IMG/VR virus record: IMGVR_UViG_3300037882_002064
Span: 1,423 to 65,422 of that record
DNA from: a virus
Taxonomy: Duplodnaviria > Caudoviricetes
Length of the DNA: 64,000 bases
Strand: one strand, 5' to 3'
Shown here: piece by piece, positions 3,835-51,200 of the stretch
Layout: every line of letters begins with the position of its first letter
Position numbering within the stretch: position 1 is the first letter of the stretch
Notes under the pieces: generated by a model
Database searches by the model: none
Seen by the model: only the letters and a program-made list of their open reading frames with translations
Told to the model about the DNA's origin: nothing
Program-made: the position numbers and the translations under genes

Positions 3835-3836
3835 GT

Positions 3837-35600: not shown

Positions 35601-38600
35601 TATGGCTACATCAAGCGCACCGAAGGCGCTGATGGCGACCATATCGACGTATTCGTGGGGCAGAACCCCGAAAGCGATCAGGTGTATGTCGTTGACCAAG
35701 TAAACGGCAAAGGTGCGTTTGACGAACACAAGGTCATGCTCGGGTTTGATACTGAGAAAGAAGCAATCGCCGCCTATAAGGAAAATTACGATCCGAAGTG
35801 GACAGTCGGCCCTGTCTCTACTATGTCGATGGACGTATTCAAAGGCTGGCTCGAAGATGCTGACCTGACAAAACCCATATCACCGAGCGGTATCCGGGTA
35901 CTCAAGGCAGACAAGGCGTTTCAGGAGAACCAGAAAAAGAACGAACTTGCCATTTACGAACAGCCGGGCATGACACTGCGGCACGAAGGCAAGAGCTATC
36001 CGGTTGACAGCCTGGCTGATGCGGCGACCAAGTACCGCGCAGTCATTGATCGACTGGCCGGGGAAGGAGCCGGTGGCGCAAGTCAGATGGGCGCAAGCCC
36101 GACAATCCATGATGCCAGCGGCAAGCAGATCGCCAGGATCAGCTATAACGGTCGCATTTGGGACATGAACGACAAGGAGCTACCTGGCCCGTATGCGCGG
36201 GATGTGAAGGTAGAGCAAATTACTGCCGATGATGTTTCTGACGAGCAGGCGCTGGCCGATGCGCTCAAGGATAACGACGATCAATCCATCGAGGAAATGC
36301 ACGAATGGATCTCCGCAGCCTACGGTGAGGACAAGATACCGGCGCTGCTGGCCCACCATATCAACCTGGCCATAGCGGCCGGCGTACCAGAATTCAAGAT
36401 CGCGCTAGAAATCAACCGATTGCCACCCGGCAAGAAAGACGACTTTGCCGTAATGACGGCAATCATGCGCCTGAAGAACGAATACAAAAAAGAGGAAGAA
36501 ACGAATGAGCCGACCAGTGAACCCGGCAGCGATACTGAGACTGGCCAAACAGGTCAGAAAACAGGAGGCCGCACAAAGCCAACGCGAAAATCAGCCTCCT
36601 ACACCTTCACCCGAGAAGATCAAAGGATCGTCAGACGGCGGCCCAACAAAAAGCCGTGGGTTAATAAGAATTCAGCCAAGCAAGCACTGAGGGAGCTTGG
36701 GCTTGAAAAGACGCACCGCGTCAACGGGTACTCCAATTCCGGCCCCTTCGGTCGAGAGTGGTGGATTGAGCCAAAATACAGCGCCTTCAAATTCCCGTAC
36801 ACCCAGGATCAGTACCGGAATGCGAAGGACGCAAAAACGGAGGACTATCCCTACGTTATAGAACCGCGATGGGACTCCATGAGCGCAACGGCTCGCGGGA
36901 ATCTTGAGAACGAACTGCGCCGCGGTTTACGCCAGTGGGATGCTCGATTCACAAAAGCGGAAGGCGTATTGCGCTTTGGTAGCGAAGATCAGCGTCAGTT
37001 TTTCATTGATAACGCAATGAACCAGGCCAACCCTTTTTCGATGCTCTATACCAAGAGCATTCTGCAAGAAGGCCAGAAGAAAGCCGAAGTAACTGAGCCA
37101 GCGACTGACGATAAGAAAACGCGCGCGCAAGAACTTCGCGCCAAGATCAAGCAAGGCCTGAAGGAAGCTGGTGGCGGCAAAGAGGCGCTGACAGACTTCG
37201 GTGAGAAGCTGGGCGGCTCTCGGGCCGACAAGGCGGCGGCGCGCAAGGCTAAGCTGATGGCGCTGGCCAGCATGGACGAAAATGAGATCCAGACAAAATC
37301 ACTCAGCGATCTATGGCCGAAAGATGCCTACATGCAGATCGAGGACGATTTCATATCGGCATTCAACTATGTGGCCAGGAAGTCTGTGCCCAAGAAGCCG
37401 CGCAAAAGCTGGAAGCTCAGGCAGTGGGCGAAGGATATTCAATCTGCCGCAGCATTGTCTGACCTATTGGCTGAAGCTGCTGAAAGCGGAGGTTACGAGC
37501 AATTCCGCGAGAGGATGCTGGCCAACGACGAAACGGCGGCCATGCTCCACGAAGTAGACTTGCTGACTAACCTTCCTCGGAAAGACTGGGAGCGCATTGG
37601 TGTGGCCTATTTCAGGTACGATGCCTACACCTACAAGCGCGATGAAAATGGGGATGTGGAGAAGATCCCGAAGCCGTATGCCGGGATGTACATCGATGGC
37701 AAATACCATGAATTCAAAGAAACTAAGGATGTAGTTGCTGACCACCTCCCTAGAATTCAGGAGCTGCTTGGGGTCGAAGTCACTCCGAAATCCAAGAAGA
37801 AAGAGCTGACCCGGTACGACTTCGAGGTGCGTGGTCGCGCAGGAAAATGGAATATCTATCGCAAGGGAGACAGTGAGTATCGGAAGCTGCTGCCAGAAGA
37901 TTGGACTGACAGCAAAGAACTGCAAGCCTGGAAGGTCGATAACATCCCAGCACTGGTTGAAGCATGGGAGAAAATCAAAGAACGGGACAATGTTGGCAAG
38001 GGCGATATGCGCCGGGACTCCAACAAACCGCGTACCGGGAAGGATCACCGCGGCGGCAAGGACATTGACGCCAAGGACTTCCATGAAACCTTCGGCTTCC
38101 GTGGCGGCGAGTTTGGGAAGTGGGTCAAGCAGGGCACCGGGGCGAAGGATCGGCAGGGCCTGCTGAACCAGTCCTTTGATGCGCTGATGGATCTGGCCGA
38201 CATTCTCGGTGTGCCACCTATGGCGCTATCCCTGAACGGATCGCTGGGCATTGGTTTGGGATCGCGTGGAAGCGGCAAGGCCTCTGCCCACTTCGAGCCA
38301 GACTTCATTGTAATCAACCTGACCAAGACCAAGGGTGCAGGATCCCTGGCGCACGAATGGTTCCATGCGGCTGACAACTACTTTGCTCGGGCGCGTGGCG
38401 AGCAAGGCCAGTACATCACCAAGAACCCAATGTCCCGCGAAGTCGGCAAAGCGGGCGTCCGAGAAGAAGTGGAGCGCGCCTTCCAGAATCTTCGCAATGT
38501 GCTGAACCAATCGCCCATGTATGCGCGGGCCAAGAAGATCGACAAGAATAAGCCTGATGGCTACTGGTCGCGGATCATCGAGCGAGCAGCCCGATCCTTT

Positions 38601-41600
38601 GAAGTCTACATCATCGAGAAGATGGCACAGGGCGGCTACGATAATGACTTCCTGGCCAACGTCAGATCCATAGCGGAATGGACGAAAGCACCGGATCGCT
38701 ATCCCTACCCCAAGCGGATCGAAGTGCGGCCCCCACAGGCCAGCGAACTGCCGGATGAAATGGCCCCGATTACCGAGGCCTTTGACACTCTGTTTGAAAC
38801 CATCGAGGTTAAAGACACGGTTCTTGGCAAGGATGAATTTGGCAAAGATCGACTGGGCAAGGCTATGTTCCGGGCCGAGGACGACTTTGGCAGCATCAAG
38901 GATGTACCCGGCCTGTTCATGGTTCAGGGTGATGGCGCGAAGATCGACCCGGAAATGTTGGCGATGGGCGCTGAACTGGCCATGATCCACATGGAGGGCG
39001 GCGGCAAGCCATTCCCCGAGTTTGTGCAGCTCATGGCTGAGGATCTTGGTGTCACGGTAGACCAGATCAAGCCCTACCTACGCGGTTGGTACAATGGTGC
39101 CCGAGACATGATGGAGGACAGCGGCCTCGAAGTGGCCGGCATGGACGACTCCAACGCTGTGCGCGAGGCCATGAAAAATCTTGGCCAGCCCCAGGCCGAG
39201 AAGCCAGCGCCTGCGGAAACTGCGGAAACTGCGGAAAAGCCCGCGGCTAAAGACGTTCGAGACTATCTGTTTGATAACCTGGCCGAGATCACCGACAACC
39301 GCAAGCTGAAGTCGCTCATGGCCACCTTCCACGGCACTCCCGCGGCTGACGTTACCGAACAGCAAATGAAGGAGGCCCAAGAGGCCGTCGAGGTCGCCCT
39401 TGTAAAACAGGCCAGAGACACTATTGCCAAAGGCCGCAAGCACGGACTGAGCGAGAAGGCTATCTACGACAGGCTGGTTGACCAGTATAACGCGCAGCCG
39501 AACTTGAACATGCGATCCAGCACCAGCATGGAGAATCAGGCCTACAGCACACCCTCGCCCCTGGCCTTCATTGCCAGCCGGTACGCCGGGATCAATGCCC
39601 AGTCCAAGGTACTCGAACCCACTGCCGGGAACGGTATGCTGCTGATCGAGGCCACGCCGGGCAATGTCATTGCCAATGAACTGAACAATGACAGGGCCGA
39701 TAACCTGAAATTCCAGGGCTACAAAGTCACTCAGCATGATGCCTCTAAGGTACAGCTCCCCGCCCAGTCTGTTGATGCGTTTGTCACCAATCCACCATTT
39801 GGCCGGTTGCGCGATGAAAATGGCAATAACTATGACGAAAAGGTAGACGGCTACACCATTAAGTCTATCGATCAACTGATCGTGGCCAAGCAATTGGATG
39901 CCATGAAAGACAGTGGCGGCAAGGCTGCCATCATTATCGGTGCCGACAAGGTAGCGGGTGAGATCAGCCCGAGCGACCGGGTATTCTTCAATTGGCTGTA
40001 TGGCCACTACAACGTGGTCGACCACTTCGAGGTGGCCGGCGAGCTGTATCAGCGCCAAGGTGCAGGATGGCCGGTGCGTGTTATAATCGTTGAAGGTAGG
40101 CAGAAATCTAGCACCAAGTCGCCAATATCAGGTAGCATTGAGCGGCTGGACAACTGGAATCAGATCTATGACCGATACGCAGAAAGTTTGGGTGCCACGA
40201 ACCCCCGACCTGACACAGGATCAGGGATCGGTACTGAGCCTGTCACGCGCCCCAACACAGGAACCGGACAGCCTCAAGTTACGGGTGGAGAGCAAACTGG
40301 TACGCCTAATGGATCAGGAGGACGACCCGGAGGCGGTTCTGGAAATACTGGCGGCAGTGCCCGACCTGTATCTGGCGGCAATGGATCAGGAAACAAGCCG
40401 GGAACGGGCAATGGCGATGATGGAAGATACCAGCCTGTCACAACTGGTGAGCCAGGTGGAGTGGGACTTGAGGGGATCGAGCAACCTGAAGCCCTACCCT
40501 TGGGAACTGGAAGTGATACGGGATCACAGCAGCCAGTCATTGAGCAGCCTGATGGCCAGCCTGGCGCGCAGCCTACAGTAAAAGCCCCGCGTGTAGCCGG
40601 GCCACAAGAGGATGGCTCGTCCTTCCAAACCCCCTATCCCGGTCGCAGCAAAAGCCCCAATGAATCTGCGCTTGTGCCGAACAACATGGCCAAGGCTATC
40701 GGTACGGCCCTCGAAACCATCGAAGAAGCCGTGGGCAAGTCGCTCGATGAGTACGTCATGGAAAAGCTCCAATATGACACCATCGAGGAAATGTCCGAAG
40801 TCCTGATGGGATTGCAGATCGATGCTATCGCCGCGACGATTTACAACTTCGAGAACAAAGGCAAAGGCATCATCATTGCCGACCAGACTGGCGTAGGGAA
40901 AGGCCGCCAGGCTGCGGCGATCATCCGTTACGCCAAGATCATTGGCAAGACACCCATCTTCGCTACTGTTGCCGACAACCTGTATTCCGATATGTGGGAC
41001 GACCTGCATGAGATTGGCGAAACCAATATCCGGCCGCTGGTTATCAACAACAATGTGCCGATCAAGAGCGAGAGCTTCAAGGGCCAGAAGGCGTTGAAGC
41101 CGGCCGAGCGCAGGAAGGCGCTGGATACGATCCTCAAGACAGGATCTCTGCCCGCCAACCATGACATGCTGTTTATGACCTATCACCAGATCAAGACAGA
41201 CAATGAGCAGCGCAAGGTCATTGATGCCCTGAAGCACAATGCCATTTTTGTCCTTGATGAATCCCACAACGTATCCGGGCCGCGCTCGGTCGATAAGAAG
41301 GTGAATGGCAAAAAGGTTACTCGCGTAACTGGCGCAGGCTTCATGTTCGAGCAGATCGCTGACGCCCCGGTGCTGTACTTGTCTGCCACTTATGCCAAGC
41401 GGGCCGACAATATGGCCATCTACTACCGCACCGACCTGATGGATGCGGTGGACAGCCCCGAAGATCTGATCGCTGCCGTTGCCGCTGGCGGCGTACCTGT
41501 TCAGCAAATCATGTCCAACATGCTCACGGAGAGCGGCCAGCTATTCCGGCGCGAGAAGTCCTTCGAGGGGATCTCGATACCGACTGTCATTGACACGGCC

Positions 41601-44600
41601 AACCGAGAGAAGCATGTAAAAACCTCTGATGCTGTGAATGTCGGCCTGCAATCCATCTTGGAAGCAGACCGCATGTTCAATGACGTATTCTTCCCGATAT
41701 ACCTGAAAGAGCAGGAGAAGAAGGGTGGCAGCGCCTTCATGGGCGGGAACAAGCTCAATCAAAACATCACCCATACCGGGTTTAATTCCGTGGTGCATAA
41801 CAAGGTGCGCCAGATGCTGCTGGCCCTGAAAACGGCCACAGCGGTAGACCGGGCCATCCAGGCTCACAAGGATGGTAAGAAACCTGTTATTGCGCTGGAA
41901 TCCACTTTCGGATCGTTCCTTAGTTCGTATGTCAAACAGCACGACCTCAAAGCTGGCGATCCAGTAGACATTGATTACCGGGACATTCTCCGCGAAGCCC
42001 TTACGGGCAGCCGCAGGATCACAGTCGAGGATGAGTTTGGCGAAAAACAGTATATCCAGATCCAAATGCACGAACTCGATCCGGCCACTCGCTTGATGTA
42101 CCAGAATGCCGAGAAGGCGATTACTGCGCTCGATATAGCAGATCTGCCCATATCGCCCATTGATTACATGATAAATGGCATGGAGAAGGCGGGCATCAAG
42201 GTCAAAGAAATCACCGGCCGCGAGCTGCGATTGGACTACTCTGGCGGCGGTGTGCCGACACTGGTGAAGGTTCCGTCGAACGAATCGTCCAAGAAGCGGG
42301 CCAAGGTAGACGACTTTAACCGTGGCGACCTCGATGCGCTGATCCTGAACGTATCGGGATCGACTGGCTTGAGCATTCATGCCAGCAAAAAGGATACGGT
42401 AAAAGACAAGAAGCCGCGCAAAATGATCGTCGCCCAGGCGATGCAGGACATAAACATCCTGATTCAAATGCTGGGCCGGATCAACCGCACTGGCCAAGTC
42501 GTGCTTCCTGAATACGAAATGCTGACCGCAGACTTGCCGGCAGAGAAGCGCCCGGCTGCCGTGGTCGCCCGCAAGATGGCGTCCCTGAATGCCAACACCA
42601 GCTCGAACGACGAGTCGGATACCACGATCAAAGCCCCGGACATGATGAACAAGTACGGCGACCAGATCGTGAATAGCTACCTGCAAGAAAACCTCGATCT
42701 GGCGTGGCTGTTGCACATCACCCCCAGCACCGGGGATGGCGCAGCGGCAATTGACCTGGCGTTGAAGGCTACTGGCCGATTGGCCGTGCTTCCTGTTGCA
42801 GTGCAGGAAGCGGTATACGAGGAATTGGAGCGCGCCTACGCTGATGAAATCGAGTACCTGAACGCAACCGGGCAAAACGATCTGATTGCCCAAACCGTTG
42901 ACCTCGATGCCAGGATCAAAGACAGCCGCATCATTTATCAAGGCAAAGCGCCCGATACGATCTTCGGCGGGAACACTACCCTGCACAAGATTGACGCCAA
43001 GTATCAGGGCAAGCCGCCTACGGCTCGGGATGTGGAACATGCACTTGATAAGTCTCGCGGCGAAACCAGCACAGGGATTCTCGACAAAAAGAATGCTGAC
43101 AAGTCCTATGAGAAACAACTTGAGCAGCGGTTCTTGGATGCCCAGGCCGACCTTGTAAAACACAATGAAATGTCCGACCAAGTGAAAACGGACGAGCTGG
43201 ACGCCTACGCGATCAAAGGTGCCAAGCTGGCCGAGCGGCTTGATGCGGCCAGGGGGGCCGCCAATGCTTATGTGGAAAGCAAGAGACTGGCCACCAATGA
43301 AATAGAAAAGTTTACTGTTGGCAAGCAATTCCGGCTTGATCTGAGTGATGAAATTGTCATTGGCGTGGTTGTTTCCGTTAAAGACTCACATGCAGATGGC
43401 AAGGGTAATCCGTGGTCGCTGTCCAAGACTCGCATCACCTTCATGGTAAACAGCGGGATCAGGCAGGTAGAGCTTCCACTTTCCAAGCTGCAAAGTGAAG
43501 GCAAGATCCTGATCGAGAAATTGCGTGGCTTTGGCAAGGACGGCCTCGACCAGATATTCACGCCACACGACACGGCTCGCCGCGAGCAGCGCCACGTTGC
43601 TACCGGAAACCTGATCTCTGGCATGGCCAATTTGGACGGCGGCCGGATAGTCAACTTTACTGACAACAAAGGCGAAACATACCAAGGCATTTTGATGCCG
43701 CGGAAGTTTGGCCGAAACGGCGAATATGAAACGGCTGGCGGCCAGAACACTATCCCGGTTCGTGATCCTGCTGTAGTTAAGAAGCTGTTGCGTGATGGCG
43801 GCAGTGCGCTGTCAGGCGCTGGCGGTGTGTTCAGTGGCAACCAGGCAGTGCGCTTGATCCACAACCAAGGCCAGTGGGTAGTTCAGGTGCCAAAATCCAA
43901 CAAGGACGCCATAGCCAAATCAGTGAAGTTTGACGAAGCGATCCGCAAGATCGTGGGCGACTTCTACGGATCTGGCAACGTAATGACCGCGAAGAACAAC
44001 ATCACTGTTGCTGATGCCCGGCTCGATGCCTTGGTGGATCGGCTTATGGAGCTGACTCCGCTGTATGTGATGAAGTCAATGGAGGCGCAGGCGATTAAGG
44101 CCGGAAACCCGCCCCCCTCAACGGCGACCAACACTTTCGATAAAGACAAGAAGGGGCCGGCAGCCCCCCCGAGCGGCGCTTTCCGCGCAGATGAGGCACC
44201 TCGATCCGGGGCCAGGGTTACGCGGGACGGCCTTGAGCGCCTTGTTAAAAGCATGGGCGCGCAGTGGCAGATCCCTATGACTGTGATGGACAGCGTGAAG
44301 CAATTGCCGTCGCATGTCAGAGGGCTGTTGCGTGACCAGGGGATCACTGGGGAAGTCACCGGCTACTATGACCGTGACAACCAGCATGTTTACCTGATAG
44401 CCAATGGGATCAGCAGCTACCAGTCAGGTGCCGTTACCTTGCTGCATGAGGCCATTGGCCACTTGGGCATCGAGCGCGTGATGGGGGAGGATTTAGACCA
44501 GTTCCTGAAGTCCGTGCATGACGCGCGCAACAGCGATCCGGCTATTGCGGCCGCGTGGGCCTATGCCGAAAGGAACTATCCCAAAGCATCGAAGGCGGTG

Positions 44601-47600
44601 AAGGCGTCAGAAACGATTGCCCGGCTATCCGAGAGCGATCCGAAGCACACCATTGTACAGCGCGCCATTCAGATCGTGCGGCAGATCCTTCGCAAGCTGG
44701 GCTTTACTGTTCAGTTTTCCAATAACGACATTATCGAAGCCTTCCGCAGGGCCAAGCTGGCGCTGCAAGAGGGCCAGCAGTACGCCGGACAGGGAGAGAG
44801 GGGCGGTCTGTTCAGGATCAAAGACGATAACGGCGCAGGATCACCGATCTGGCGCGCAGCGAAGAACAAAGGCCTCGATCTGTCCAAGGATGCCAGGCTG
44901 GCCCGCGCGCGCGACATGGGCTTTGATACCGATACAGTCTGGTATCACGGCACCACCGACAACATTGCGGCCTTCGAGGACAACCCGAGCCGCAGCTTTG
45001 GTATTCATGTTGGCACCAAGTTGCAGGCAAATAACCGGCTGTTGGATCGCGCCCGGCACGACCGAGCGCACACCGGGTCAACCGTGCCGATCACGCGCAG
45101 CCAGGTAGCGGCTCCACAAGATGGTGCAAATGTGATTCCAGTTTACATAGCAGCCAAGAAACTCCTGAAGTTGCACGATGTTGGCCCTTGGCATCACGGC
45201 CCGACCGTGGCCGATGCGGTACTTAAATCGCAATTCGCGCCAGAGTCTTTGCGTGAGGCGGCCAAGAAAATCAAGGAAGAACTGGCTGAAGCTGGGAAGG
45301 CTATGGCGAAAGGCAAGGAACTGGACGCCAAAGGTATGCCAACCGCAGCCTATAAGAAACTTCGTGGCACCCACGGTATGCTGACAGAAATGGCGGCGGG
45401 AAGATTGCGCGATGCGATGATCGCCGCTGGCTACGATGGCATTCAGTACGGCAACCGCTTCGAGGGCAAGAAGCAAGGTACTGTTGGCGCAGACTCGATC
45501 ATTGTGTTCGATCCTGCCAAAGTGCGCTCGATCAATGCGGTGTTCGATCCCGAAGCGGCCCGTAGCAGCAGCATACTGTTCCGCGTCGAAGATGCCGACG
45601 AATTCAAGCTGACTAGCAGCCTTGCGCCTGAATTCTATTCAGAGCTGACCGCGGCGGCCCGCCAGTTGAAGCAGGAAAAAGGCACTCCCGAGCAAATGCT
45701 GAACGCCATCAAGAAAATGGGTGGTGTGAAGGCAGAGGAACTTGAATGGTCTGGCCTCGAAGAATACATGGCCGGGATCAGCGGCACGATCACCAAGCAA
45801 GAGATCGTGGATTATCTGGACGCCAATGGTGTGCAGGTTGTAACAATTTCCAAGGAAACGCCAGAAGCATGGGTATCCCGAGCCAATGCTGTGCTGGCAG
45901 GAACCGGCTATACCGCAGAAATGGACGACTACGATAACGAAAATGTCGTCTTTATGGATAGGGACGACGAATCCTGGGAAATGGGAGACTTGCCGCCCGA
46001 GTTGCAGACAAAACTTGATGCCATTGTTCCCAAAGGCGCGGCCGGGTCGGTCAAGTTCAGCGAGCATGTTTTGCCCGGAGGTACTAACTACCGGGAAGTG
46101 CTGCTGACGTTGCCAGCGAAGCCCCAGCGCAATTCCGTAGAATGGGCGACTGAAGCTCGCCGCCGTTATGCCGAGAAAGATATTACTCGTCTAAGCGAAG
46201 ATCAGAAAAAAATTATTGATCGTGCTGTTGGCGGGGTGAGTTACAACAAAAGCCACTGGGAAGAACCCAACGTCATTGCCCATGTTCGTATGAATGACCG
46301 TACCGATCCTGAAGGCAATCGAGTGTTGTTCCTTGAGGAAATACAAAGTGACTGGCACCAGGCAGGCAGAAAAGAGGGCTATTTAGGAACCCCTACGGGA
46401 AACACTCTATGGGATGAAGCCGATGCCGCAGAAGAAGCCACTCGCCCCGATGCTATCGACGAGATTGAATCGTATGGCCGGCTGGGCTTTGATCGGCTTC
46501 CTATGGCGATGGGTGCCATTCTTGACCATGAGGACTGGGCCGAGCGATGGGATGTGAAAGAGCGGATTGCCATTGAGGCTATCAACAGGTGGCGCACCGC
46601 CAAACTCGCGCAGGTAGAAGCATCTAAGGATAGGGCCATATTTGAGGCCCGAGTGCCAAACGCACCCTTCAAAAATAACGGGTGGGTTGAGCTGGCTGTT
46701 AAAAAGATATTGCGCCTGGCCGCCGAGGGTGGCTATGACCGCGTGGCATGGACGACCGGGGAGCAGCAAAACACCCGATACAACCTGTCTACCCAGGTTA
46801 AGTCTATAGAATGGAGCTGGGATCAGGACAGGGACAAGGGCTACCCTGACAGGAAAACTATTTGGATCGAGCCTGCGGGTCGGGATTTCAACAACACTAG
46901 AATTGTCGTTGACGACAAGGGCGTTGTACTCCGATCAAATGACGAAGGCGGCATGGATGGCTATTACGATGGTAAGCGCCTCGATGCGATAGTTGGGAAA
47001 GGAATGGCCGATAAAATTCTTGAGAATGCCAATGGCAATCTTGAAGGTGACGGCTTGAACATTGGCGGCGAAGGCATGAAGGGCTTTTACGACAATATCG
47101 TGCCGTCTACTTTCAAAAAAGTGGCCCGAAAACTTGATAAAAGCGCCAAAATAGAAGTGACGCCTATTGGTGACATACAGACCAATATCAATGGTTCGGT
47201 TCAGATTGATAATTTCCGCAAAGCTCAAAGTCTGGTGACGGCGCTTCGAGCGCGAGGCATAAGCGCAGCGAGAGCAAATACGGACAGCCTTCCCGGTGAC
47301 GAGGAAGGCGCTGTCATTATGCGATTTTATAACCTGACTTCAAATGAGGTAGAGGACGTTTGGAATCTGGTCGAGCTTGATTTTGGATGGAGATATAACG
47401 CCGAACCCGAACGAGAAATAATGGGCGGCCAGATGAGTATCGCGCTTACTCCAACCATGCAGGACTTGGCCATCAGTAAGGGTTTCGGCCTGTTCCGGGT
47501 CGAGGACGAGAACAAGAACCCTGGCACCCACAATGGCAAGCCATTCTGGATCGGCATGTACAACCCGCTCGATGGCTGGATTGAGGAAGCGCACACCTAC

Positions 47601-50600
47601 GAGGAAGCCCAGGCAAATGACTTCCACCATTCTTTCACCTTCAGCCAGACGGCGCTGGATCACGAAAAGGCTGGCGACTGGCGCATATTCTGGATCAACC
47701 GGGACAATGAGATTGAAGTCGAGTGGCGCGATCCGCGTCCCGAGGCGGCCCGGACACTGGCCCAGTTGCGGCAGAACGCCGGGCTTAATACCTCTGGTGC
47801 TTTCCGTGTGGAAGGTGAGGAAGCGGCTGAAGCGGGTGGACTGACCGCTGCCGAGATAAAAGCCTGGCGTCAGGCCCACAAGGTCACGCAGCGCCAGGGC
47901 CGGGTGCCCGAGATCCAGCAGGCCGCCAAAGACCTGAAAGCGGGCAACCTAAAGCCAGCGGCTTACCGGGCGCTGGTGAAGAAGTACCAGCCGATCATGC
48001 CGATCCGCACCGTGCCGAGACTGACCACTGTGCGGGAGATTGCCGCGGCCGTGGCTACCGACAAGGTGCAGAAGCATGGCATCTTGGGTTACAACAAGGA
48101 TATTGCGGCCGGCACTCGGGTAGCGACCAGGCTCGACATTCCGGCCTATGACTTCTACGACACTTGGGTAGTCACGATCCATGACGGCTCGAAGCGGGGC
48201 GGGAATGCGATGGCCTATGGCGATCATGCTGCCATGAAAAACGTCGAATTCGTGACCAACCCCAAGGCAGCACTGGATATTGCCACCGGAGACAGCTCCA
48301 AAGCGCCCTTTGCGCGCATTCACGGCGATTGGGTGCCCATGAGTGGGGAGCAGGCGCACGGTATGGCAGAGCGCGCCCTGACGGCTCCCGGCTGGACTCA
48401 GGTGGGTATGAACCCCTTCCGGCACAGCTACTTCTACGATAAAGCCACCGGGGAGCCAGTGGTATCGGCAGAACAGGTGATCCAGATCGGCCCGCTGGTC
48501 ATGGCCCGCAATGTGGTGAAGGGAGATCCTGACAGCTTCAAGGTTGGCAATACGGGAGTAGCATTCCGGGTCGAGGACGAGCTGGACACTGACGACTGGG
48601 GTGTTGCCCCCAGGAAACCCTGGCGCGCGGTGCTGCGGGACATGATCGATCGGCAGCGATTCCAGTACCAAGACAAGCTGATCGACCTCAAGCGCATCCA
48701 GGAGAACGCTGACCCGGCTGATTCGGCCAATGCCTACCAGAAGGCCAGCATTTGGGAAGGTAAGGCTGGGGAGCGCCTGAACGACTTTGACGAGCAGCGT
48801 ATACAGCCCCTGTTGCAGGCAATTTCTGACTCGGGGGTGGAGTGGGACACTGTTGGCAAGTGGCTGGTGGCCCGCCATGCCCATGAGGCTAACGCCTACC
48901 TGGCTGAGATCAATCCCGACATGGAGGGCGAGGATCGTTACCGGCTGTCCGGTATGTCCAATGAGGAAGCCGACGAGATCCTGGCCGAGAATGCCAACCA
49001 CCGTGGCCTGTACCTTGTGGGCGACCTCGTAGACCAGATCAACAAAGAGCGCGTGGATCTGCTGATAGCCGATGGCTTGATTTCCGAGGGGGAGGCCGCA
49101 GCGTGGCGGGGCCGGTATCAATTCTATGTCCCGCTGAAGCGCGAGGAAGCCGAGGACGCCAATCACCTACCTGGCCGCGGGCAGGGCTTCAATATCAAGG
49201 GCAAAGAATCCAAGATGCGAACCGGATCGGCGCACTGGACGCCGGGCAAGATCGTGGCCAACGTCATTGCCCAGCACCAGGCCAGCATCATCCGGGCCGA
49301 GAAGAACAAGGTGGGACAGGCGCTGCTGAGCTTCGTGCGCCAGCATCCTGACCCGACATTCTGGACTATCGATACTGAGCGCAAAATCAAGGTCGTGCGG
49401 AACGGCAAGGTAGTCACTGTCACCAAGGGCGTAGACGAGCCACATGAATTGTCCGTGAAGATCAATGGTGTGAGGCATTTTATCGCCTTCAACACCGGCA
49501 ATGAGCGGGCCATGCGCTTGGTCACTGGCATGAAGAACTTGCAGGCCGCTGAAATGGGCACTGTGATGCGGGCAATGGCTACGGCCACCCGCTATCTGTC
49601 TACGATCAATACAAGCTGGAACCCGGAATTCATCATCAGCAACTTTGCTCGGGATGTACAGACGGCAGCCTATAACCTGTCAGACACCGAGATTGTCTCG
49701 ATGCGCGGCAAGGTACTGAAAGACATACCCAGGGCTATCGGTGGGATCAAGCGGGCGCTGTTCAATGGCGGAGAAGCTCTCGATCCAGAGGACGAATGGG
49801 TACAGCTTTGGGAGGATTTCAGGAAGCACGGCGGCAGGACTGGTTGGATTGACATTCACGCTGATGTGTTGAAGCAGGAAACGAACCTCAAGGAAATGGT
49901 CGAGCGACTGGATCAGGGCAGGCCTTCCCGCAAGTGGTTCACTCGATTCCTGAAAAGCGTCGACAGCATGAACACTGTGATCGAGAACGGAGTGCGCCTT
50001 GCAGCCTATGCCAATGCCATCAAGCCAGTATCTGAGGGCGGCGGCGGGCTATCCAAAGACAAGGCCGCGGCGATGGCCAAGGATCTGACGGTCAACTTCA
50101 ACAGGAAGGGCAACCGCGGGGCGCAGGTAAACGCGCTTTATATGTTCTTCAATGCCAGCGTACAGGGCAACATGCGCTTGATTCAGGCAATGGTGAACAG
50201 CAAGCAGGGCCGCACCCTGGCGCTGGCTACCGTGGGCCTGGCTATCGGACTGGACATACTGAACCGGGCCATGTCCGGGGACGACGACGACGACGAGAAT
50301 ATCTACGACTCGATGCCGGATTTTGTGAAGGATCACAACCTGATAATCATGGGCGAGAAAGCGCCTATCGTGAAGATCCCGCTGCCGTGGGGCTATAACG
50401 TGCTGCACATTATTGGCCAGTCCATAGGCCAGGCTATCAGCGGCGAACGATTCAGCCCGCTCGATGCGGCCAGCCGGGTAGCACTGGGCCTGATGAACTC
50501 CTTCAATCCTATTGGCGGGGGCACCCTGGCACAAACCATATCCCCAACCATTATTGACCCGATCACCATGATTGCCGAAAACAAGAACTTCATGGGCACG

Positions 50601-51200
50601 GATCTGAAGCCGGCACACACCTACGATGCGCGCCTGCCCAAGCCAGAGTACCTGATGCACTGGTCAACGTCCCGAGAGGCCAGCCAGTTCATTACCAAGT
50701 GGCTGAATGATGTTTCCGGGGGGAATGAGGTGCGCCCAGGCCTTGTGGACTGGTCGCCGGAATGGGTGGATCTGATCTATGACACCCTGACAGGTGGCAC
50801 CGGCAGGACTGCGGCCATGACCCTCGATGTGGCTCAGAAACTGGTTACGGGCGAGGAATTCCCGCCTGACAGTGTGCCCTTTGTTCGCAAGGTGACTGGT
50901 TTCAACAGCGAACACCAGATCAAGGGCCGGTACTACGAATGGAGCAAAGGCGTGGCGTATGCCAAGTCTGAGGCCAAATTCCTGAAAGGCGACGAGCTGA
51001 TCGCGGCGCAGAAGAACCCGGAGTACCAGTTAGTCGGAGCCTACACCGCTGCCGAGAAGCAATTGACCGGGATGCGGAAGATTCGCCGGGAAATGGTGAA
51101 GAACGATGCCAAGCAGGAAAACATTGATGCGCTCGATGCCCGGATCAGGATCGTCATGGCCCGGTTCAATCAGCAGTACGCGGAAAAGGTGCTTCAGTGA
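29670..51200 (+). CDS. Giant polyvalent (DarB-like) virion protein, 7176 aa: ddrB/ParB-like, C5-MTase-like, InPase, LPD5/LPD1, N6-MTase, strawberry-notch-like SF2 helicase, zincin peptidase, ADP-ribosyltransferase-like, LPD38
   Basis: Uninterrupted 21.5-kb ORF. Motifs: LQNRDR/AGNGR (31.5-32.0 kb), FDLTG/PC/ENP (34605-34943), GNYKKGH/DGDHIDVF/FDEHK (35.5-35.7 kb), DFGEKLGG (37.2 kb), HEWFH (38352), LEPTAGNG/NPPF (39612/39789), DQTGVGKG/DESH/QMLGRINRTGQ (40881/41256/42465), HEAIGH (44445), YHGT (44943), EEIQSDW (46335), TVNFNRKG/FFNASVQG/KIPLPWG (50.1-50.4 kb). Confidence 0.92.
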   Translation: MADRPGVKWSDITNLDSFKNDTPEGQEKTRTGFFEQRVAPNLAPDRVEIERKNWDSATLPRPAAPAPGVAAQSQNTNLADPKALARPTTVNQATPQGQQAPAIQRPKGEAGFVSGVADFGRAVVKGAVEDVPKAIAGGIEAFNRPQFDEQGRKLAPNALGRATDAIKTKAEELGAGWQQSEYGKFEQEKDAFDLRGAAYGGGESMAMSFGPALVGGILGGLLTKSAAGAAKGAAIAQAATLPVFFGSAYQDTYSRVYKDLGEQYPDLTEEQVHDQAVKAALGTGSVEAGGEAIADVATNALFKNAPGFVKKNVAKALTRGFQGAVPLLKGIGRVLGTEVGTELLQGAAQAEIEQSVGVGEGATWENQKGVIVPTMIMAMVGGGAAAGVSANQRYRTAKLLQNPKMPPEERQAAVNGLAGMLNEYDPEVARMFHEHSSKLIAQGKPVIVQDDRFYSDLKPLDQREIDKDMAAGNFTEKPAEPETGANTPPNAPISPSATGAAQPGEPITTPPPTGTVAQSEIKNPVSATPATGAAPEGMSRPRRQILMAEIDAGLKVARAELKAAQAAGDFEAATAAEEEIRAIAVNIKRVTKGENPLPTPRQQAQGQTTPTNWASGAAQEGQPKTVLQNRDRSTPAMIEQMTSIAANPDPKRLGFSRDFGNGAPVIEPGALIPDENMGKTDTATTAEGRQIPVQYAVVEAEQLLPSNRADGTPIAEYAGEGVEGLSRAIAGNGRIAGLQRAHESGTAAGYIEGIANDEGLHGVPAATIRAMKQPVLVRIMPQEEVTDNIGDDSNIATSAALPPGDQARTDIRRIDATGVELNAKGEPTPNALMQFVNAMPGSERSGLMTGDRPSTVAETRLKNAIFAQAYESDELIKMSSEAPSPDSANVIGGMRIAAGKMARLAGVDPGYDIRPIVIEAAEAAVNAARSDLTLEEFLKQPDMGRTPYAQAILEMMATNIRSAKKIGDALSNLADVMYDEATKETDSLFGQVDKTPANELLEKLYGKQPTGKNEGDAVQTGRPDNVEGGDGGGIVAPVTEGAGKPTDAGKPKPNSAPKPKPKGDTQEGTAAPKPDRAQELRDKIKAKLEEERKKNEPATPEPTPEPAAAPRSPDYGSTNTLVSAERAEELRKKLRAKLNGSQLNAGIDPEMLAIGTELAVFHIEAGTRKFTAFAKAMANDLGATLAQLKPYLRSWYNGARDMMEDSGLNVEGMDSPEQVSKQISVMGSPNAAEFELPIETEAELSARLKAEKDRADQDAKAQAKQDKEAADAKQAEDDKKRADETSKDFQLGQDAEQQMSGQANIFDIPPGQNPDLVKKMNAQREKLAKLRDLFASRDQDLAKIQLAKIDAVLAGLDRAIETGKDLNDLPTDEAFESLINQMTKKALKMRSQTDADKMAAEIADKVKAKDERLKTEGDMAKPFTDVFSIPGVDKMSAGKPAKWWIEIANSGIDWAPAVAYAEKARKALNERGVYDSSQASRVMAVPEAELMPMGRVSGTIERLARDLASFIREDGRQDADSRLELIKSNSAILGVDPSPVIDPTEAKEPVKSNAPEHRAVGVDDRELGQIVKEFNSAQAQGQEIHHLFDAPAKKEIVRLADKVKVYHAEHGWMKPADAKKKIEEWKANAKAQGKRGGGRVENSQKVVLSFFDLTGKWSQPWEEAGYQVWRFDIQNDEEMGDVNNFSAEFFGDWFGDFDGNDVYAILAACPCTDFASSGARHFAAKDEDGRTVASVKLVHQTLAAIEYFKPSVWAIENPVGRIESLGGLPPWRLAFDPNHLGETYTKKTLIWGRFNADLPIAPVDPVEASKMHSQYGGSSIATKNARSATPEGFSYGFFAANNAIDNPVMALANKFDRLDRDLIGRALSVGVTEEEITSAVEDFYYMDLDDDAANAAIQELIDDTGPAAAIDAAAHEAATSPNNDLPQPTDAQKEAGNYKKGHISVQGIDITVENPKGSERTGTDEDGTAWSHTMQSHYGYIKRTEGADGDHIDVFVGQNPESDQVYVVDQVNGKGAFDEHKVMLGFDTEKEAIAAYKENYDPKWTVGPVSTMSMDVFKGWLEDADLTKPISPSGIRVLKADKAFQENQKKNELAIYEQPGMTLRHEGKSYPVDSLADAATKYRAVIDRLAGEGAGGASQMGASPTIHDASGKQIARISYNGRIWDMNDKELPGPYARDVKVEQITADDVSDEQALADALKDNDDQSIEEMHEWISAAYGEDKIPALLAHHINLAIAAGVPEFKIALEINRLPPGKKDDFAVMTAIMRLKNEYKKEEETNEPTSEPGSDTETGQTGQKTGGRTKPTRKSASYTFTREDQRIVRRRPNKKPWVNKNSAKQALRELGLEKTHRVNGYSNSGPFGREWWIEPKYSAFKFPYTQDQYRNAKDAKTEDYPYVIEPRWDSMSATARGNLENELRRGLRQWDARFTKAEGVLRFGSEDQRQFFIDNAMNQANPFSMLYTKSILQEGQKKAEVTEPATDDKKTRAQELRAKIKQGLKEAGGGKEALTDFGEKLGGSRADKAAARKAKLMALASMDENEIQTKSLSDLWPKDAYMQIEDDFISAFNYVARKSVPKKPRKSWKLRQWAKDIQSAAALSDLLAEAAESGGYEQFRERMLANDETAAMLHEVDLLTNLPRKDWERIGVAYFRYDAYTYKRDENGDVEKIPKPYAGMYIDGKYHEFKETKDVVADHLPRIQELLGVEVTPKSKKKELTRYDFEVRGRAGKWNIYRKGDSEYRKLLPEDWTDSKELQAWKVDNIPALVEAWEKIKERDNVGKGDMRRDSNKPRTGKDHRGGKDIDAKDFHETFGFRGGEFGKWVKQGTGAKDRQGLLNQSFDALMDLADILGVPPMALSLNGSLGIGLGSRGSGKASAHFEPDFIVINLTKTKGAGSLAHEWFHAADNYFARARGEQGQYITKNPMSREVGKAGVREEVERAFQNLRNVLNQSPMYARAKKIDKNKPDGYWSRIIERAARSFEVYIIEKMAQGGYDNDFLANVRSIAEWTKAPDRYPYPKRIEVRPPQASELPDEMAPITEAFDTLFETIEVKDTVLGKDEFGKDRLGKAMFRAEDDFGSIKDVPGLFMVQGDGAKIDPEMLAMGAELAMIHMEGGGKPFPEFVQLMAEDLGVTVDQIKPYLRGWYNGARDMMEDSGLEVAGMDDSNAVREAMKNLGQPQAEKPAPAETAETAEKPAAKDVRDYLFDNLAEITDNRKLKSLMATFHGTPAADVTEQQMKEAQEAVEVALVKQARDTIAKGRKHGLSEKAIYDRLVDQYNAQPNLNMRSSTSMENQAYSTPSPLAFIASRYAGINAQSKVLEPTAGNGMLLIEATPGNVIANELNNDRADNLKFQGYKVTQHDASKVQLPAQSVDAFVTNPPFGRLRDENGNNYDEKVDGYTIKSIDQLIVAKQLDAMKDSGGKAAIIIGADKVAGEISPSDRVFFNWLYGHYNVVDHFEVAGELYQRQGAGWPVRVIIVEGRQKSSTKSPISGSIERLDNWNQIYDRYAESLGATNPRPDTGSGIGTEPVTRPNTGTGQPQVTGGEQTGTPNGSGGRPGGGSGNTGGSARPVSGGNGSGNKPGTGNGDDGRYQPVTTGEPGGVGLEGIEQPEALPLGTGSDTGSQQPVIEQPDGQPGAQPTVKAPRVAGPQEDGSSFQTPYPGRSKSPNESALVPNNMAKAIGTALETIEEAVGKSLDEYVMEKLQYDTIEEMSEVLMGLQIDAIAATIYNFENKGKGIIIADQTGVGKGRQAAAIIRYAKIIGKTPIFATVADNLYSDMWDDLHEIGETNIRPLVINNNVPIKSESFKGQKALKPAERRKALDTILKTGSLPANHDMLFMTYHQIKTDNEQRKVIDALKHNAIFVLDESHNVSGPRSVDKKVNGKKVTRVTGAGFMFEQIADAPVLYLSATYAKRADNMAIYYRTDLMDAVDSPEDLIAAVAAGGVPVQQIMSNMLTESGQLFRREKSFEGISIPTVIDTANREKHVKTSDAVNVGLQSILEADRMFNDVFFPIYLKEQEKKGGSAFMGGNKLNQNITHTGFNSVVHNKVRQMLLALKTATAVDRAIQAHKDGKKPVIALESTFGSFLSSYVKQHDLKAGDPVDIDYRDILREALTGSRRITVEDEFGEKQYIQIQMHELDPATRLMYQNAEKAITALDIADLPISPIDYMINGMEKAGIKVKEITGRELRLDYSGGGVPTLVKVPSNESSKKRAKVDDFNRGDLDALILNVSGSTGLSIHASKKDTVKDKKPRKMIVAQAMQDINILIQMLGRINRTGQVVLPEYEMLTADLPAEKRPAAVVARKMASLNANTSSNDESDTTIKAPDMMNKYGDQIVNSYLQENLDLAWLLHITPSTGDGAAAIDLALKATGRLAVLPVAVQEAVYEELERAYADEIEYLNATGQNDLIAQTVDLDARIKDSRIIYQGKAPDTIFGGNTTLHKIDAKYQGKPPTARDVEHALDKSRGETSTGILDKKNADKSYEKQLEQRFLDAQADLVKHNEMSDQVKTDELDAYAIKGAKLAERLDAARGAANAYVESKRLATNEIEKFTVGKQFRLDLSDEIVIGVVVSVKDSHADGKGNPWSLSKTRITFMVNSGIRQVELPLSKLQSEGKILIEKLRGFGKDGLDQIFTPHDTARREQRHVATGNLISGMANLDGGRIVNFTDNKGETYQGILMPRKFGRNGEYETAGGQNTIPVRDPAVVKKLLRDGGSALSGAGGVFSGNQAVRLIHNQGQWVVQVPKSNKDAIAKSVKFDEAIRKIVGDFYGSGNVMTAKNNITVADARLDALVDRLMELTPLYVMKSMEAQAIKAGNPPPSTATNTFDKDKKGPAAPPSGAFRADEAPRSGARVTRDGLERLVKSMGAQWQIPMTVMDSVKQLPSHVRGLLRDQGITGEVTGYYDRDNQHVYLIANGISSYQSGAVTLLHEAIGHLGIERVMGEDLDQFLKSVHDARNSDPAIAAAWAYAERNYPKASKAVKASETIARLSESDPKHTIVQRAIQIVRQILRKLGFTVQFSNNDIIEAFRRAKLALQEGQQYAGQGERGGLFRIKDDNGAGSPIWRAAKNKGLDLSKDARLARARDMGFDTDTVWYHGTTDNIAAFEDNPSRSFGIHVGTKLQANNRLLDRARHDRAHTGSTVPITRSQVAAPQDGANVIPVYIAAKKLLKLHDVGPWHHGPTVADAVLKSQFAPESLREAAKKIKEELAEAGKAMAKGKELDAKGMPTAAYKKLRGTHGMLTEMAAGRLRDAMIAAGYDGIQYGNRFEGKKQGTVGADSIIVFDPAKVRSINAVFDPEAARSSSILFRVEDADEFKLTSSLAPEFYSELTAAARQLKQEKGTPEQMLNAIKKMGGVKAEELEWSGLEEYMAGISGTITKQEIVDYLDANGVQVVTISKETPEAWVSRANAVLAGTGYTAEMDDYDNENVVFMDRDDESWEMGDLPPELQTKLDAIVPKGAAGSVKFSEHVLPGGTNYREVLLTLPAKPQRNSVEWATEARRRYAEKDITRLSEDQKKIIDRAVGGVSYNKSHWEEPNVIAHVRMNDRTDPEGNRVLFLEEIQSDWHQAGRKEGYLGTPTGNTLWDEADAAEEATRPDAIDEIESYGRLGFDRLPMAMGAILDHEDWAERWDVKERIAIEAINRWRTAKLAQVEASKDRAIFEARVPNAPFKNNGWVELAVKKILRLAAEGGYDRVAWTTGEQQNTRYNLSTQVKSIEWSWDQDRDKGYPDRKTIWIEPAGRDFNNTRIVVDDKGVVLRSNDEGGMDGYYDGKRLDAIVGKGMADKILENANGNLEGDGLNIGGEGMKGFYDNIVPSTFKKVARKLDKSAKIEVTPIGDIQTNINGSVQIDNFRKAQSLVTALRARGISAARANTDSLPGDEEGAVIMRFYNLTSNEVEDVWNLVELDFGWRYNAEPEREIMGGQMSIALTPTMQDLAISKGFGLFRVEDENKNPGTHNGKPFWIGMYNPLDGWIEEAHTYEEAQANDFHHSFTFSQTALDHEKAGDWRIFWINRDNEIEVEWRDPRPEAARTLAQLRQNAGLNTSGAFRVEGEEAAEAGGLTAAEIKAWRQAHKVTQRQGRVPEIQQAAKDLKAGNLKPAAYRALVKKYQPIMPIRTVPRLTTVREIAAAVATDKVQKHGILGYNKDIAAGTRVATRLDIPAYDFYDTWVVTIHDGSKRGGNAMAYGDHAAMKNVEFVTNPKAALDIATGDSSKAPFARIHGDWVPMSGEQAHGMAERALTAPGWTQVGMNPFRHSYFYDKATGEPVVSAEQVIQIGPLVMARNVVKGDPDSFKVGNTGVAFRVEDELDTDDWGVAPRKPWRAVLRDMIDRQRFQYQDKLIDLKRIQENADPADSANAYQKASIWEGKAGERLNDFDEQRIQPLLQAISDSGVEWDTVGKWLVARHAHEANAYLAEINPDMEGEDRYRLSGMSNEEADEILAENANHRGLYLVGDLVDQINKERVDLLIADGLISEGEAAAWRGRYQFYVPLKREEAEDANHLPGRGQGFNIKGKESKMRTGSAHWTPGKIVANVIAQHQASIIRAEKNKVGQALLSFVRQHPDPTFWTIDTERKIKVVRNGKVVTVTKGVDEPHELSVKINGVRHFIAFNTGNERAMRLVTGMKNLQAAEMGTVMRAMATATRYLSTINTSWNPEFIISNFARDVQTAAYNLSDTEIVSMRGKVLKDIPRAIGGIKRALFNGGEALDPEDEWVQLWEDFRKHGGRTGWIDIHADVLKQETNLKEMVERLDQGRPSRKWFTRFLKSVDSMNTVIENGVRLAAYANAIKPVSEGGGGLSKDKAAAMAKDLTVNFNRKGNRGAQVNALYMFFNASVQGNMRLIQAMVNSKQGRTLALATVGLAIGLDILNRAMSGDDDDDENIYDSMPDFVKDHNLIIMGEKAPIVKIPLPWGYNVLHIIGQSIGQAISGERFSPLDAASRVALGLMNSFNPIGGGTLAQTISPTIIDPITMIAENKNFMGTDLKPAHTYDARLPKPEYLMHWSTSREASQFITKWLNDVSGGNEVRPGLVDWSPEWVDLIYDTLTGGTGRTAAMTLDVAQKLVTGEEFPPDSVPFVRKVTGFNSEHQIKGRYYEWSKGVAYAKSEAKFLKGDELIAAQKNPEYQLVGAYTAAEKQLTGMRKIRREMVKNDAKQENIDALDARIRIVMARFNQQYAEKVLQ
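39211..39237 (+). repeat. 9-bp tandem repeat x3 in a linker of the giant protein
   Basis: CTGCGGAAA x3, encoding AET-AET-AEK. Confidence 0.9.

Follow-up and report, generated by a model that had tools for sequence, protein, structure and literature searches.

The window analysed here is a stretch of 64 000 nucleotides of viral DNA (Duplodnaviria; Caudoviricetes), corresponding to positions 1423 to 65 422 of IMG/VR record IMGVR_UViG_3300037882_002064. Its structural module is closed by a single open reading frame (ORF) on the plus strand, identified from the ORF list and its translation, which encodes a giant polyvalent virion protein of 7176 amino acids. Seven copies of a short FRVED-like motif lie in this protein. 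The evidence supports the view that they mark the boundaries between its modules, and we consider tentatively that they may be processing sites for a peptidase domain carried in the same chain. The features concerned are as follows (all coordinates refer to the window; the residue number of the junction Phe is followed by the position of its codon).

29670..51200 (+), ORF of the giant polyvalent virion protein (ejection-type), 7176 residues, closing the structural module
38031..38672 (+), CLCA_X-type zincin domain with HEWFH, candidate processing peptidase (residues 2788–3001, H2895), between LPD5 and LPD1
38862..38885 (+), junction 1, AMFRAEDD, F3067 (38868), after LPD1
38868..44180 (+), methyltransferase–helicase unit, 1771 residues: a repeated module of ~110 residues, an N6-methyltransferase (NPPF) and a Strawberry-notch-like, DarB-like helicase
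44175..44198 (+), junction 2, GAFRADEA, F4838 (44181)
44217..44786 (+), second zincin-like domain, with HEAIGH (HExxxH), second candidate peptidase (residues ~4850–5039), in a unit of 210 residues
44805..44828 (+), junction 3, GLFRIKDD, F5048 (44811)
44811..45578 (+), ART-PolyVal-like unit (YHGT), 256 residues (PF18760, E = 1.6e-4, below the cut-off)
45573..45596 (+), junction 4, ILFRVEDA, F5304 (45579)
45579..47492 (+), EEIQSDW domain unit, 638 residues, a widespread phage family
47487..47510 (+), junction 5, GLFRVEDE, F5942 (47493), at the conserved end of the EEIQSDW domain
47493..47801 (+), compact unit of 103 residues between junctions 5 and 6
47796..47819 (+), junction 6, GAFRVEGE, F6045 (47802)
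47802..48563 (+), domain of 254 residues weakly similar to Mycobacterium phage L5 gp82 (Pfam PF25735, E = 1.4e-4)
48558..48581 (+), junction 7, VAFRVEDE, F6299 (48564)
48564..51197 (+), C-terminal LPD38 module, 878 residues, with 63% identity to the related giant protein P0004 and 33% to Stx-phage proteins

The seven copies were found at the codons and residues given in a preliminary description of this stretch, spelled exactly as it had quoted them, and the unit sizes of 1771, 210, 256, 638, 103, 254 and 878 residues follow from the Phe positions. The dipeptide FR occurs 16 times in the giant protein, and seven of these occurrences are junction sites. In 2000 composition-preserving shuffles the core FR[VAI][EDK][DEG], observed seven times, reached a mean of 0.13 and a maximum of 2, while the longer form [ALM]FR[VAI][EDK][DEG][DEA], also observed seven times, reached a mean of 0.007 and a maximum of 1. 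These degenerate forms are post hoc definitions, made after the data had been seen, and the exact tetrapeptide FRVE (four copies) is by itself unexceptional (P = 0.69, family-wise test on the maximum 4-mer). Chance is rejected for the degenerate pattern, which occupies seven of the 16 FR dipeptides, is uniformly preceded by [ALM] and lies far outside random expectation. Two more general screens were uninformative: reduced-alphabet k-mer enrichment was too coarse and missed even the giant protein's own motif, and in an all-against-all 7-mer self-comparison with BLOSUM scores shuffled sequences yielded as many partners as the real one.

A six-frame scan of the whole window found the core at the seven junctions, once in the portal protein (YAFRVEQD) and nowhere else. 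The portal copy, which had been raised beforehand as a caveat, lies at window positions 11536–11559 (portal residues 409–416), inside the P22_portal fold (residues 31–646), and the block that contains it is kept in Stx-phage portals as VFRVEQDFQV (57% identity over 100 residues). Because it is an element of the portal fold, kept in a Stx phage whose giant protein uses another junction motif, it is considered unrelated to the junctions and a link between the two was rejected. The other string given as a caveat, KQFRLDL, is also present, at residue 4554.

Arg of the motif is encoded by CGG in three copies, CGC in two, and AGG and CGT in one each. Copies 5 and 7 do share 18 identical nucleotides (TTCCGGGTCGAGGACGAG), as had been reported; the remaining pairs agree at 8–16 of the 18 core nucleotides and use differing synonymous codons. 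Since differing synonymous codons encode the copies, selection acts on the motif at the protein level, as the preliminary description had proposed. Identity in the 30-nucleotide flanks is at chance level (4–13 of 30).

The position of the sites relative to modules was analysed by BLAST of the giant protein against 44 giant homologues and gp35 of Stx phage 86, which gave 129 blocks and therefore 258 block ends. Of the 258 ends, 79 were within 35 residues of a site, compared to a mean of 24.8 under the null (P = 0.007); a whole-protein null gave P = 0.001. The summed block coverage at the sites was 25 compared to 75.8 expected (P = 0.005). No block crosses site 1; at site 3 blocks stop at residues 5012–5043 and resume at 5153 at the earliest, and at site 7 they stop at 6299–6308 and resume at 6317 at the earliest. 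Site 4 is spanned by 12 blocks, from relatives that repeat the same two neighbours together with a similar junction. Pfam domains all fall between the sites. The order of modules differs from that in the related giant proteins P0002, P0003 and P0005, and the breakpoints of these rearrangements lie within a few residues of the motif.

Structure prediction with AlphaFold2 (AF2) was carried out for two regions. The first model (residues 5290–5960; 97-sequence alignment; mean predicted local distance difference test score, pLDDT, of 77) starts with 26 residues, site 4 included, with pLDDT <50, which are followed by the EEIQSDW domain. The last element of this domain consists of a strand, a helix (TPTMQDLAIS) and then GFGLF; pLDDT is 95–96 at model residues 631–650, 71 at 651–660 and 38 at 661–671, falling through RVEDENK, so that site 5 marks the point at which the ordered part of a domain predicted with confidence ends. 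The second model (residues 4800–5330) was built on a shallow alignment of whole giant proteins, noisy because the homologue search with the zincin-like and ART segment gave 5 hits only. It contains a confident alpha/beta domain at residues ~4850–5039 (block-mean pLDDT 78–97), with sites 2 (model residues 1–48) and 3 (239–263) in flanks with pLDDT <50; its ART half is poorly modelled and therefore silent on site 4. The expectation that the sites would lie in linkers thus agrees with the models for sites 2, 3 and 4, and at site 5 the motif stands at the very end of a folded domain. Block ends, Pfam placement, AF2 linkers and permuted modules all support the conclusion that the seven sites mark module boundaries.

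Permutation of modules among relatives exactly at the junctions, together with the 18 nucleotides common to copies 5 and 7, would be expected if the string provided microhomology for module-swapping recombination, a possibility also put forward in the preliminary description. However, recombination at the DNA level is unsupported because the flanks on both sides of the copies are no more alike than by chance; the cores of the other pairs differ by synonymous codons, and relatives with the same junctions use different peptides. This explanation is largely refuted and we regard it as very improbable.

According to Pfam, the giant protein contains ddrB-ParB (residues 626–779), InPase (1930–2062), LPD5 (2685–2807; E = 2.1e-7), LPD1 (2958–3016; E = 1.5e-9), the helicase domains AAA_34, ResIII and Helicase_C_4 (3710–4344), a weak ART-PolyVal match (5090–5289) and LPD38 (6877–7072; E = 1.5e-36). 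The methyltransferase–helicase unit in addition matches UPF0020 weakly and gives long BLAST blocks to P0002, P0003 and P0005. Relatives carry PF18760 in precomputed annotation. Several unrelated effector or enzymatic domains are thus found in one chain by Pfam (the methyltransferase and ART-PolyVal weakly), together with LPD-type domains (LPD1, LPD5, LPD38), a zincin-like domain (CLCA_X) and a location among late, virion genes. The giant protein therefore falls among the phage polyvalent proteins as defined by Iyer et al. (2017), and is a very large new member of that class.

Upstream of the giant gene and on the same strand are genes for TerS, TerL, a P22-type portal, a probable scaffold, a PF13252 major capsid protein, an SU10-type adaptor and tail proteins. 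The portal shares 40% identity with its counterparts in short-tailed Stx phages. Over its last 845 residues the giant protein shares 33% identity with the Stx-phage giant protein, and this part matches 355 phage records, among which are phages of Vibrio, Ralstonia and Burkholderia; a search of viral contigs with the C-terminal module alone found no relative. According to a preprint (bioRxiv 10.64898/2026.04.10.717836), the homologue in phage phi24B, gp47, is an abundant virion component in mass spectrometry, and its authors suggest a role as an ejection protein. The giant proteins of phi24B and other Stx phages share with ours the order LPD5–CLCA_X HEWFH–LPD1, a second zincin-like domain, the LPD38 module and a similar structural module, but they have 2783–2811 residues instead of 7176, lack the methyltransferase–helicase, ART, EEIQSDW and L5-gp82-like cassettes, and use the junction form [FY]YSR rather than FRVED. 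The best explanation is that the giant gene encodes a head-packaged polyvalent protein of a podovirus of the phi24B/GP4/Bcep22 type, whose C-terminal 4100 residues form seven exchangeable modules.

How far the motif extends to relatives was then considered. A position-specific scoring matrix made from the seven sites gave 14 matches in 6 of 45 proteins, and 7 of the 14 were in the giant protein itself; with so few matches, the strict FRVED form hardly occurs outside this protein. Other peptides are found at the homologous places. Junction 1 (KAMFRAEDD, after LPD1) has as counterparts GVAFYSRKG in gp35 of Stx phage 86 and GVALFSRTT in P0012, and the place of junction 2 is aligned with AAFRAGD in P0002, PFFSK in P0005 and PSYSI in P0003. 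Junction 3 (GGLFRIKDD) corresponds to SSQYSRSG (Stx phage 86), RALFSHI, TIYYSRI, GGGLFQTG and SPFFSAM, and a hydrophobic-[FY]-[SRQ] string follows the HExxxH domain in 10 of 13 relatives (manual count). Relatives have LFSHI, YYSRI, YLSQI or PAFSM just before the L5-gp82-like domain, at the place of junction 6, and DVYFSQ, DVFFSD, GVFFAK, GIYFNR, DIRFSL or DVLFQG after it, where the giant protein has GVAFRVEDE. Before the LPD38 module, at the place of site 7, are GPYYSRTS (Stx phage 86) and NILFRVGG (P0004). In gp35 of Stx phage 86, YSR occurs four times compared to 0.4 expected (P = 0.0008, post hoc); three of the four (FYSR, QYSR, YYSR), near residues 1439, 1670 and 1870 of this protein, are at junctions homologous to sites 1, 3 and 7, and BLAST block ends cluster at the junctions of this protein (P = 0.004). 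Judged from these alignments, the FRVED-like motif represents one local form, or dialect, of a junction signature common to the wider family, hydrophobic-[F/Y]-polar, rather than a private code.

Several other giant proteins repeat a form of their own:

P0043: [DE]xVRFS, six copies (reached by 0 of 300 shuffles)
P0044: LFQP, six copies (0 of 300)
P0228: KFQK, four copies (1 of 300)
P0308: QFSL, four copies (8 of 300)
L021: FQ[RK], four copies (repeat count)
P0045: RYSxR, three copies (repeat count)
P0012, P0029 and P0041: FSR, three to four copies (repeat count)
P0042 and P0034: [DHS]VRET, five and four copies, with no aromatic residue (five reached by 3 of 300 shuffles for P0042)

The VRET repeat of P0042 and P0034 does not fit the hydrophobic-[FY]-polar pattern. 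In some proteins the residues that follow Phe at a shared domain end match the dialect of the same protein (PLFQPG in P0044, PLFQKG in P0031, IKFQKT in P0228 and SQFSLA in P0308). The dialects are real in a subset only, roughly ten of the ~116 giant proteins scanned, and do not constitute a general rule, since a global test of concerted evolution, given below, was negative.

Two domains in the chain are candidates for a peptidase acting at the junctions. The HEWFH domain matches the NCBIfam family NF041907, CLCA_X (E = 1.1e-36; 126.5 bits, below the whole-protein cut-off of 260), over profile positions 3–216 of 250. HEWFHAAD (residues 2895–2902) is the sole HExxH in the giant protein, and with a third zinc ligand downstream in the family-level match it qualifies the domain as a zincin metallopeptidase. 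A search by sequence of the Protein Data Bank (PDB) found no solved relative of this domain, weak unrelated matches only. The second candidate has HEAIGH (window positions 44445–44462, residues 4926–4931), which is HExxxH and not the canonical HExxH of zincins. This spacing recalls the HExxGH of dipeptidyl-peptidase III. Among the 46 giant proteins scanned, the signature HE[AL][IV][GA]HxG recurs in ~22 by manual reading; the corresponding string in Stx phage 86 and P0012 is HExxH. The preliminary description had named both domains as zincins. This stands for HEWFH, which belongs to CLCA_X; for HEAIGH the label of a canonical zincin motif has to be dropped. A complex prediction with the HExxxH domain (residues 4845–5040) and a junction-4 peptide (residues 5290–5325) scored 0.00 in a run without controls and speaks neither for nor against binding.

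Each junction has two parts, the hydrophobic-Phe end of the upstream module and then R-[VAI]-[ED/K]-[DEG]-[DEA], at the start of a flexible, mostly acidic linker. Some lineages have homogenized the family-wide signature into a dialect of their own. These observations lead to the proposal that the signature would be read by one common partner. Most likely this partner would be a zincin-type peptidase in the same chain, with the CLCA_X HEWFH domain and the HExxxH domain as candidate cutters, and the polyprotein would be cut at the junctions inside the head or after ejection. The units released would be the methyltransferase–helicase, HExxxH, ART, EEIQSDW, 103-residue, L5-gp82-like and LPD38 units, leaving an N-terminal core of 3066 residues. 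The motif, its boundary position, its conservation at homologous junctions and the zincin-like domains in cis are observed; recognition, cleavage, the identity of the protease and its timing are what we infer. The junctions are accordingly described as putative processing sites for an internal zincin, a reading we hold tentatively and place somewhat short of probable.

This reading fits because processing of polyvalent proteins by MPTase domains was predicted by Iyer et al. in 2017 (PMC5512222) and because there is a precedent among CLCA proteins. Lenart et al. (2013) describe CLCA_X, frequent in phages and plasmids, as the sister group of the CLCA_N zincins, whose members cut their own chain at a conserved site (PMC3650047); for CLCA_N the site is given as R/ALY and the active site as HEWAH (PMC9007345). 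The HEWFH region resembles these proteins in its match to CLCA_X and in the active-site string HEW[AF]H, but differs from the published HExxHxxxD consensus in its HEWFHaaD spacing, in addition to its score below the whole-protein cut-off. No activity is known for any member of CLCA_X, and any likeness in cleavage sites (small-hydrophobic-aromatic) serves as a lead only. In addition, 43 of the 46 giant proteins scanned contain an HExxH or HExxxH string. Cutting at the junctions would also account for the tag kept at every one of them and for the conservation of residues that lie beyond the fold.

In MARTX and large clostridial toxins, an internal cysteine protease cuts after Leu in linkers between effectors. 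The giant protein may work in a similar manner, given an effector array, short linkers, a hydrophobic followed by a small or polar residue and release after delivery. However, in the present case the host is a bacterium and delivery is by ejection from a phage, the candidate is a zincin, and Pfam shows no Peptidase C80 (MARTX-type cysteine protease) at E ≤ 0.01 over the whole giant protein, which is thus not a member of this group. The Pfam model for MPTase-PolyVal likewise does not match the giant protein.

In T4-like and phiKZ-like phages a prohead protease cuts proteins inside the head at short motifs. The junctions might likewise be sites for a separate prohead protease, following the logic of T4 gp21 or phiKZ gp175, or for a host protease. 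No prohead protease was recognized among the structural ORFs scanned (20 by Pfam and 20 by PHROGs), and the portal string is the sole occurrence of the motif in any other ORF of the window. Furthermore, the related capsid protein of phi24B shows no cleavage in the data presented in the preprint. We consider this alternative scarcely credible.

Several observations weigh against cleavage by an internal zincin. For the HExxxH domain, searches of Pfam, NCBIfam and PDB sequences gave no match, nor did Foldseek against PDB at E ≤ 0.001; its weak Foldseek matches (lethal factor, N4 gp50, MATCAP, IrrE/PprI) have E values of 0.5–1.3 only. No one peptidase family is present in every giant protein that carries a dialect; P0004, with three LFR sites, has the HExxxH domain only and no HExxH. 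The N-terminal 3066 residues comprise several modules and have zero copies of the junction motif. Enrichment of boundaries at the repeats was non-significant in P0043 (P = 0.37), P0042 (P = 0.14), P0044 (P = 0.058) and also P0034, the tests on P0043, P0042 and P0034 being uninformative because few homologous blocks cover these proteins. Within-protein concerted evolution was examined by comparing how often the tripeptide of a shared domain end is found again within its own protein and in others. A first global test gave 0.79 for self and 0.53 for cross comparisons, with no P value attached, and a second gave 0.67 and 0.66 (P = 0.45).

Further points of this kind concern the aromatic residue, which is also a conserved end of modules. 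In the EEIQSDW alignment of 97 rows, G5938 and F5942 are at least 90% conserved, and AF2 models the Phe as docked, with pLDDT 95 up to model residue 650. The end of this domain, TPxM[RK]..a..GxP[LM]F, is found in 29 of 45 giant proteins with the strict pattern and in 53 of 120 stand-alone proteins of 400–1170 residues; 45 of these 53 stop 11–40 residues after PLF, mostly with PLF[A/S/Q], an Ala/Gly-rich tail and an acidic end. The L5-gp82-like domain, which has 1402 representative clusters (E ≤ 0.001), ends with x-F-[SRQNKA] in 113 of 146 members (77%) compared to 14% of random windows from the same proteins. The F-polar end is an intrinsic feature of the L5-gp82-like family and is also found in its stand-alone members, which have no need of release. 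The ART modules of relatives end with IKSATGNxGxFDxxNPxIx[FY][SRQN], the place of junction 4 (14 matches, ~11 judged genuine). Thus, a hydrophobic-aromatic-polar end is common to several unrelated module families, fused or free, and in the giant protein all such ends are brought to FR[VAI]ED.

This evidence can be accommodated by an uncleaved, structural punctuation, in which every module is capped at its C-terminus by the hydrophobic-Phe and followed by the acidic run, a flexible linker that repels DNA. The chain would pack beside the DNA as beads on a string and thread through the portal, and the copies would be alike by parallel selection on linkers. In addition to the docked and conserved F5942 and G5938, the short tails of the stand-alone proteins, the F-polar end of the L5-gp82-like family and the non-significant concerted-evolution tests, precedents exist among virion proteins: P1 DarB is described as a 250 kDa virion protein that is incorporated by means of a capsid-targeting signal (PMC9024508), and Iyer et al. 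(PMC5512222) state that N4 vRNAP is packaged in unprocessed form. P1 DdrB, on the other hand, is reported to be processed. However, unrelated folds (the helicase end, the zincin-like, ART, EEIQSDW and L5-gp82-like domains, and LPD1) would all need an identical ending, and in this protein the likeness at the seven sites extends to the five or six residues after Phe. A low-confidence linker stands between each of sites 2 and 3 and the fold ahead of it, one VRFS copy is at the N-terminus of P0043, and the N-terminal 3066 residues use quite different linkers, rich in Pro, Glu, Lys and Ala. Structural punctuation with no cutting is in our opinion unlikely, with a chance that deserves to be taken seriously.

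The stand-alone proteins suggest another possibility. Internal proteins of phage T4 carry capsid-targeting peptides. The junction string could similarly act as a signal for packaging or ejection, in the form of a short linear peptide to which a common phage partner binds, such as the portal, the scaffold, the capsid interior or the ejection conduit; modules would have inherited it from stand-alone, head-packaged ancestors and, after fusion, kept it as a multivalent signal. Stand-alone EEIQSDW and L5-gp82-like proteins indeed carry the motif near the C-terminus, with short and often conserved tails, the dialects vary by phage lineage as expected from co-evolution with a phage-specific receptor, and the capsid-targeting peptide of P1 DarB is a known example (PMC9024508). 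Yet one signal should suffice for a polypeptide and seven are strictly kept, while the N-terminal half, common to the Stx-phage core, has none. No partner was identified; FRVEQDF in the portal is a conserved fold element and provides no counterpart. A packaging signal is therefore judged quite unlikely.

The two large module families concerned have further features. For the EEIQSDW family, 233 homologues of near-full length were found, and 582 of 600 were confirmed among the matches listed in viral contigs; in spite of a confident AF2 model, the domain has no match in Pfam or NCBIfam, nor a PDB fold match by Foldseek. Its stand-alone members begin at [GP]FYSA. The L5-gp82-like domain occurs at the N-terminus, in the middle or at the C-terminus of proteins of 200–7000 residues. 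In many of the smaller ones the end has the form xF[AKNS]xGG (PTFAxGG, RMFNEGG, YFKKGG), FxxGG-like strings recur downstream of the domain, and one subgroup ends in a conserved tail, GGNVERV..N.R.Y. The 103-residue unit has neither a Pfam match nor a BLAST block among the 45 relatives (44 giant proteins and gp35 of Stx phage 86).

The module of ~110 residues occurs twice in the giant protein, at window positions 32958–33314 (residues 1097–1215) and 38943–39269 (residues 3092–3200), the second copy beginning 23 residues past junction 1. Its pattern is IDPEMLA.G.ELA...KPYLR.WYNGARDMMEDSGL, the two copies being nearly identical at the end. It is found in many giant relatives, usually with P.YG..NK ahead of it, and has no family name. 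The N-terminal 3066 residues (29670–38867) consist of ParB, a C5-methylase-like region, InPase and LPD5–CLCA_X–LPD1, with long low-complexity linkers between them; the sole string there that looks like a degenerate junction is LKADKAFQENQ, after the InPase domain. Elsewhere in the window, an SLT lytic transglycosylase is encoded upstream of the terminase (1720–2310), an HNH endonuclease just past the giant gene on the opposite strand (51715–52653, minus strand), and a RecE-like exonuclease with a RecT/Bet annealing protein at 57197–58739 (minus strand).

By its domain content (NPPF, weak UPF0020 and helicase domains) the methyltransferase–helicase unit is of the P1 DarB type, that is, a head-packaged N6-adenine methyltransferase with a superfamily-2 helicase. 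Like DarB, it would be packaged in the head and presumably delivered into the cell, but it is one cassette of a larger, motif-bounded array. The giant homologue of Bcep22-like phages has also been called DarB-like (PMC9144972). The resemblance to the polyvalent proteins of Iyer et al. (PMC5512222) covers the multi-effector chain, LPD1, LPD5, LPD38, DdrB-ParB, InPase, ART-PolyVal, the late or virion context and the predicted cutting by an internal zincin. As far as their main text was searchable, it defines no junction or cleavage motif, whereas the giant protein has a positional signature with dialects. No junction or cleavage code was found in the searchable literature, comprising the main text of Iyer et al., the phi24B preprint and the JC1 and P1 papers, supplements aside. 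Therefore, what is new here is the positional junction signature with its lineage dialects, while polyvalent proteins and their proposed processing were already known. Motifs at the joins of variable cassettes are familiar from polymorphic toxins, where VENN (CdiA) and DPxGL (Rhs) have this role and some are processing sites. These differ in sequence and in delivery, and mark a single C-terminal cassette instead of a serial array.

As a wider generalization, a common code of proteolytic punctuation could exist across phage polyvalent proteins and numerous effectors that are packaged in the head as stand-alone proteins: modules would end in hydrophobic-[F/Y], and the polar residues after it would vary by lineage. 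Zincin-type domains of these proteins would read the code and free a set of anti-defence enzymes from one injected chain; the dialects (FRVED, [FY]SR, LFQP, VRFS, KFQK, QFSL) would then co-evolve with protease specificity. At this breadth the idea is possible and somewhat more doubtful than not. Polyvalent proteins are widespread in phages and conjugative elements, and their cutting into effectors has been predicted since 2017 and never demonstrated. A defined junction signature names the exact residues to check, including those in a cultivable relative for which proteomic data exist. It also offers a practical means of setting module limits in the thousands of giant phage proteins that lack annotation, and it points to two large uncharacterized module families, EEIQSDW and L5-gp82-like. 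Should the sites prove to be uncut, the shared aromatic end of unrelated modules would still need an explanation, for example in packaging or in threading through the portal.

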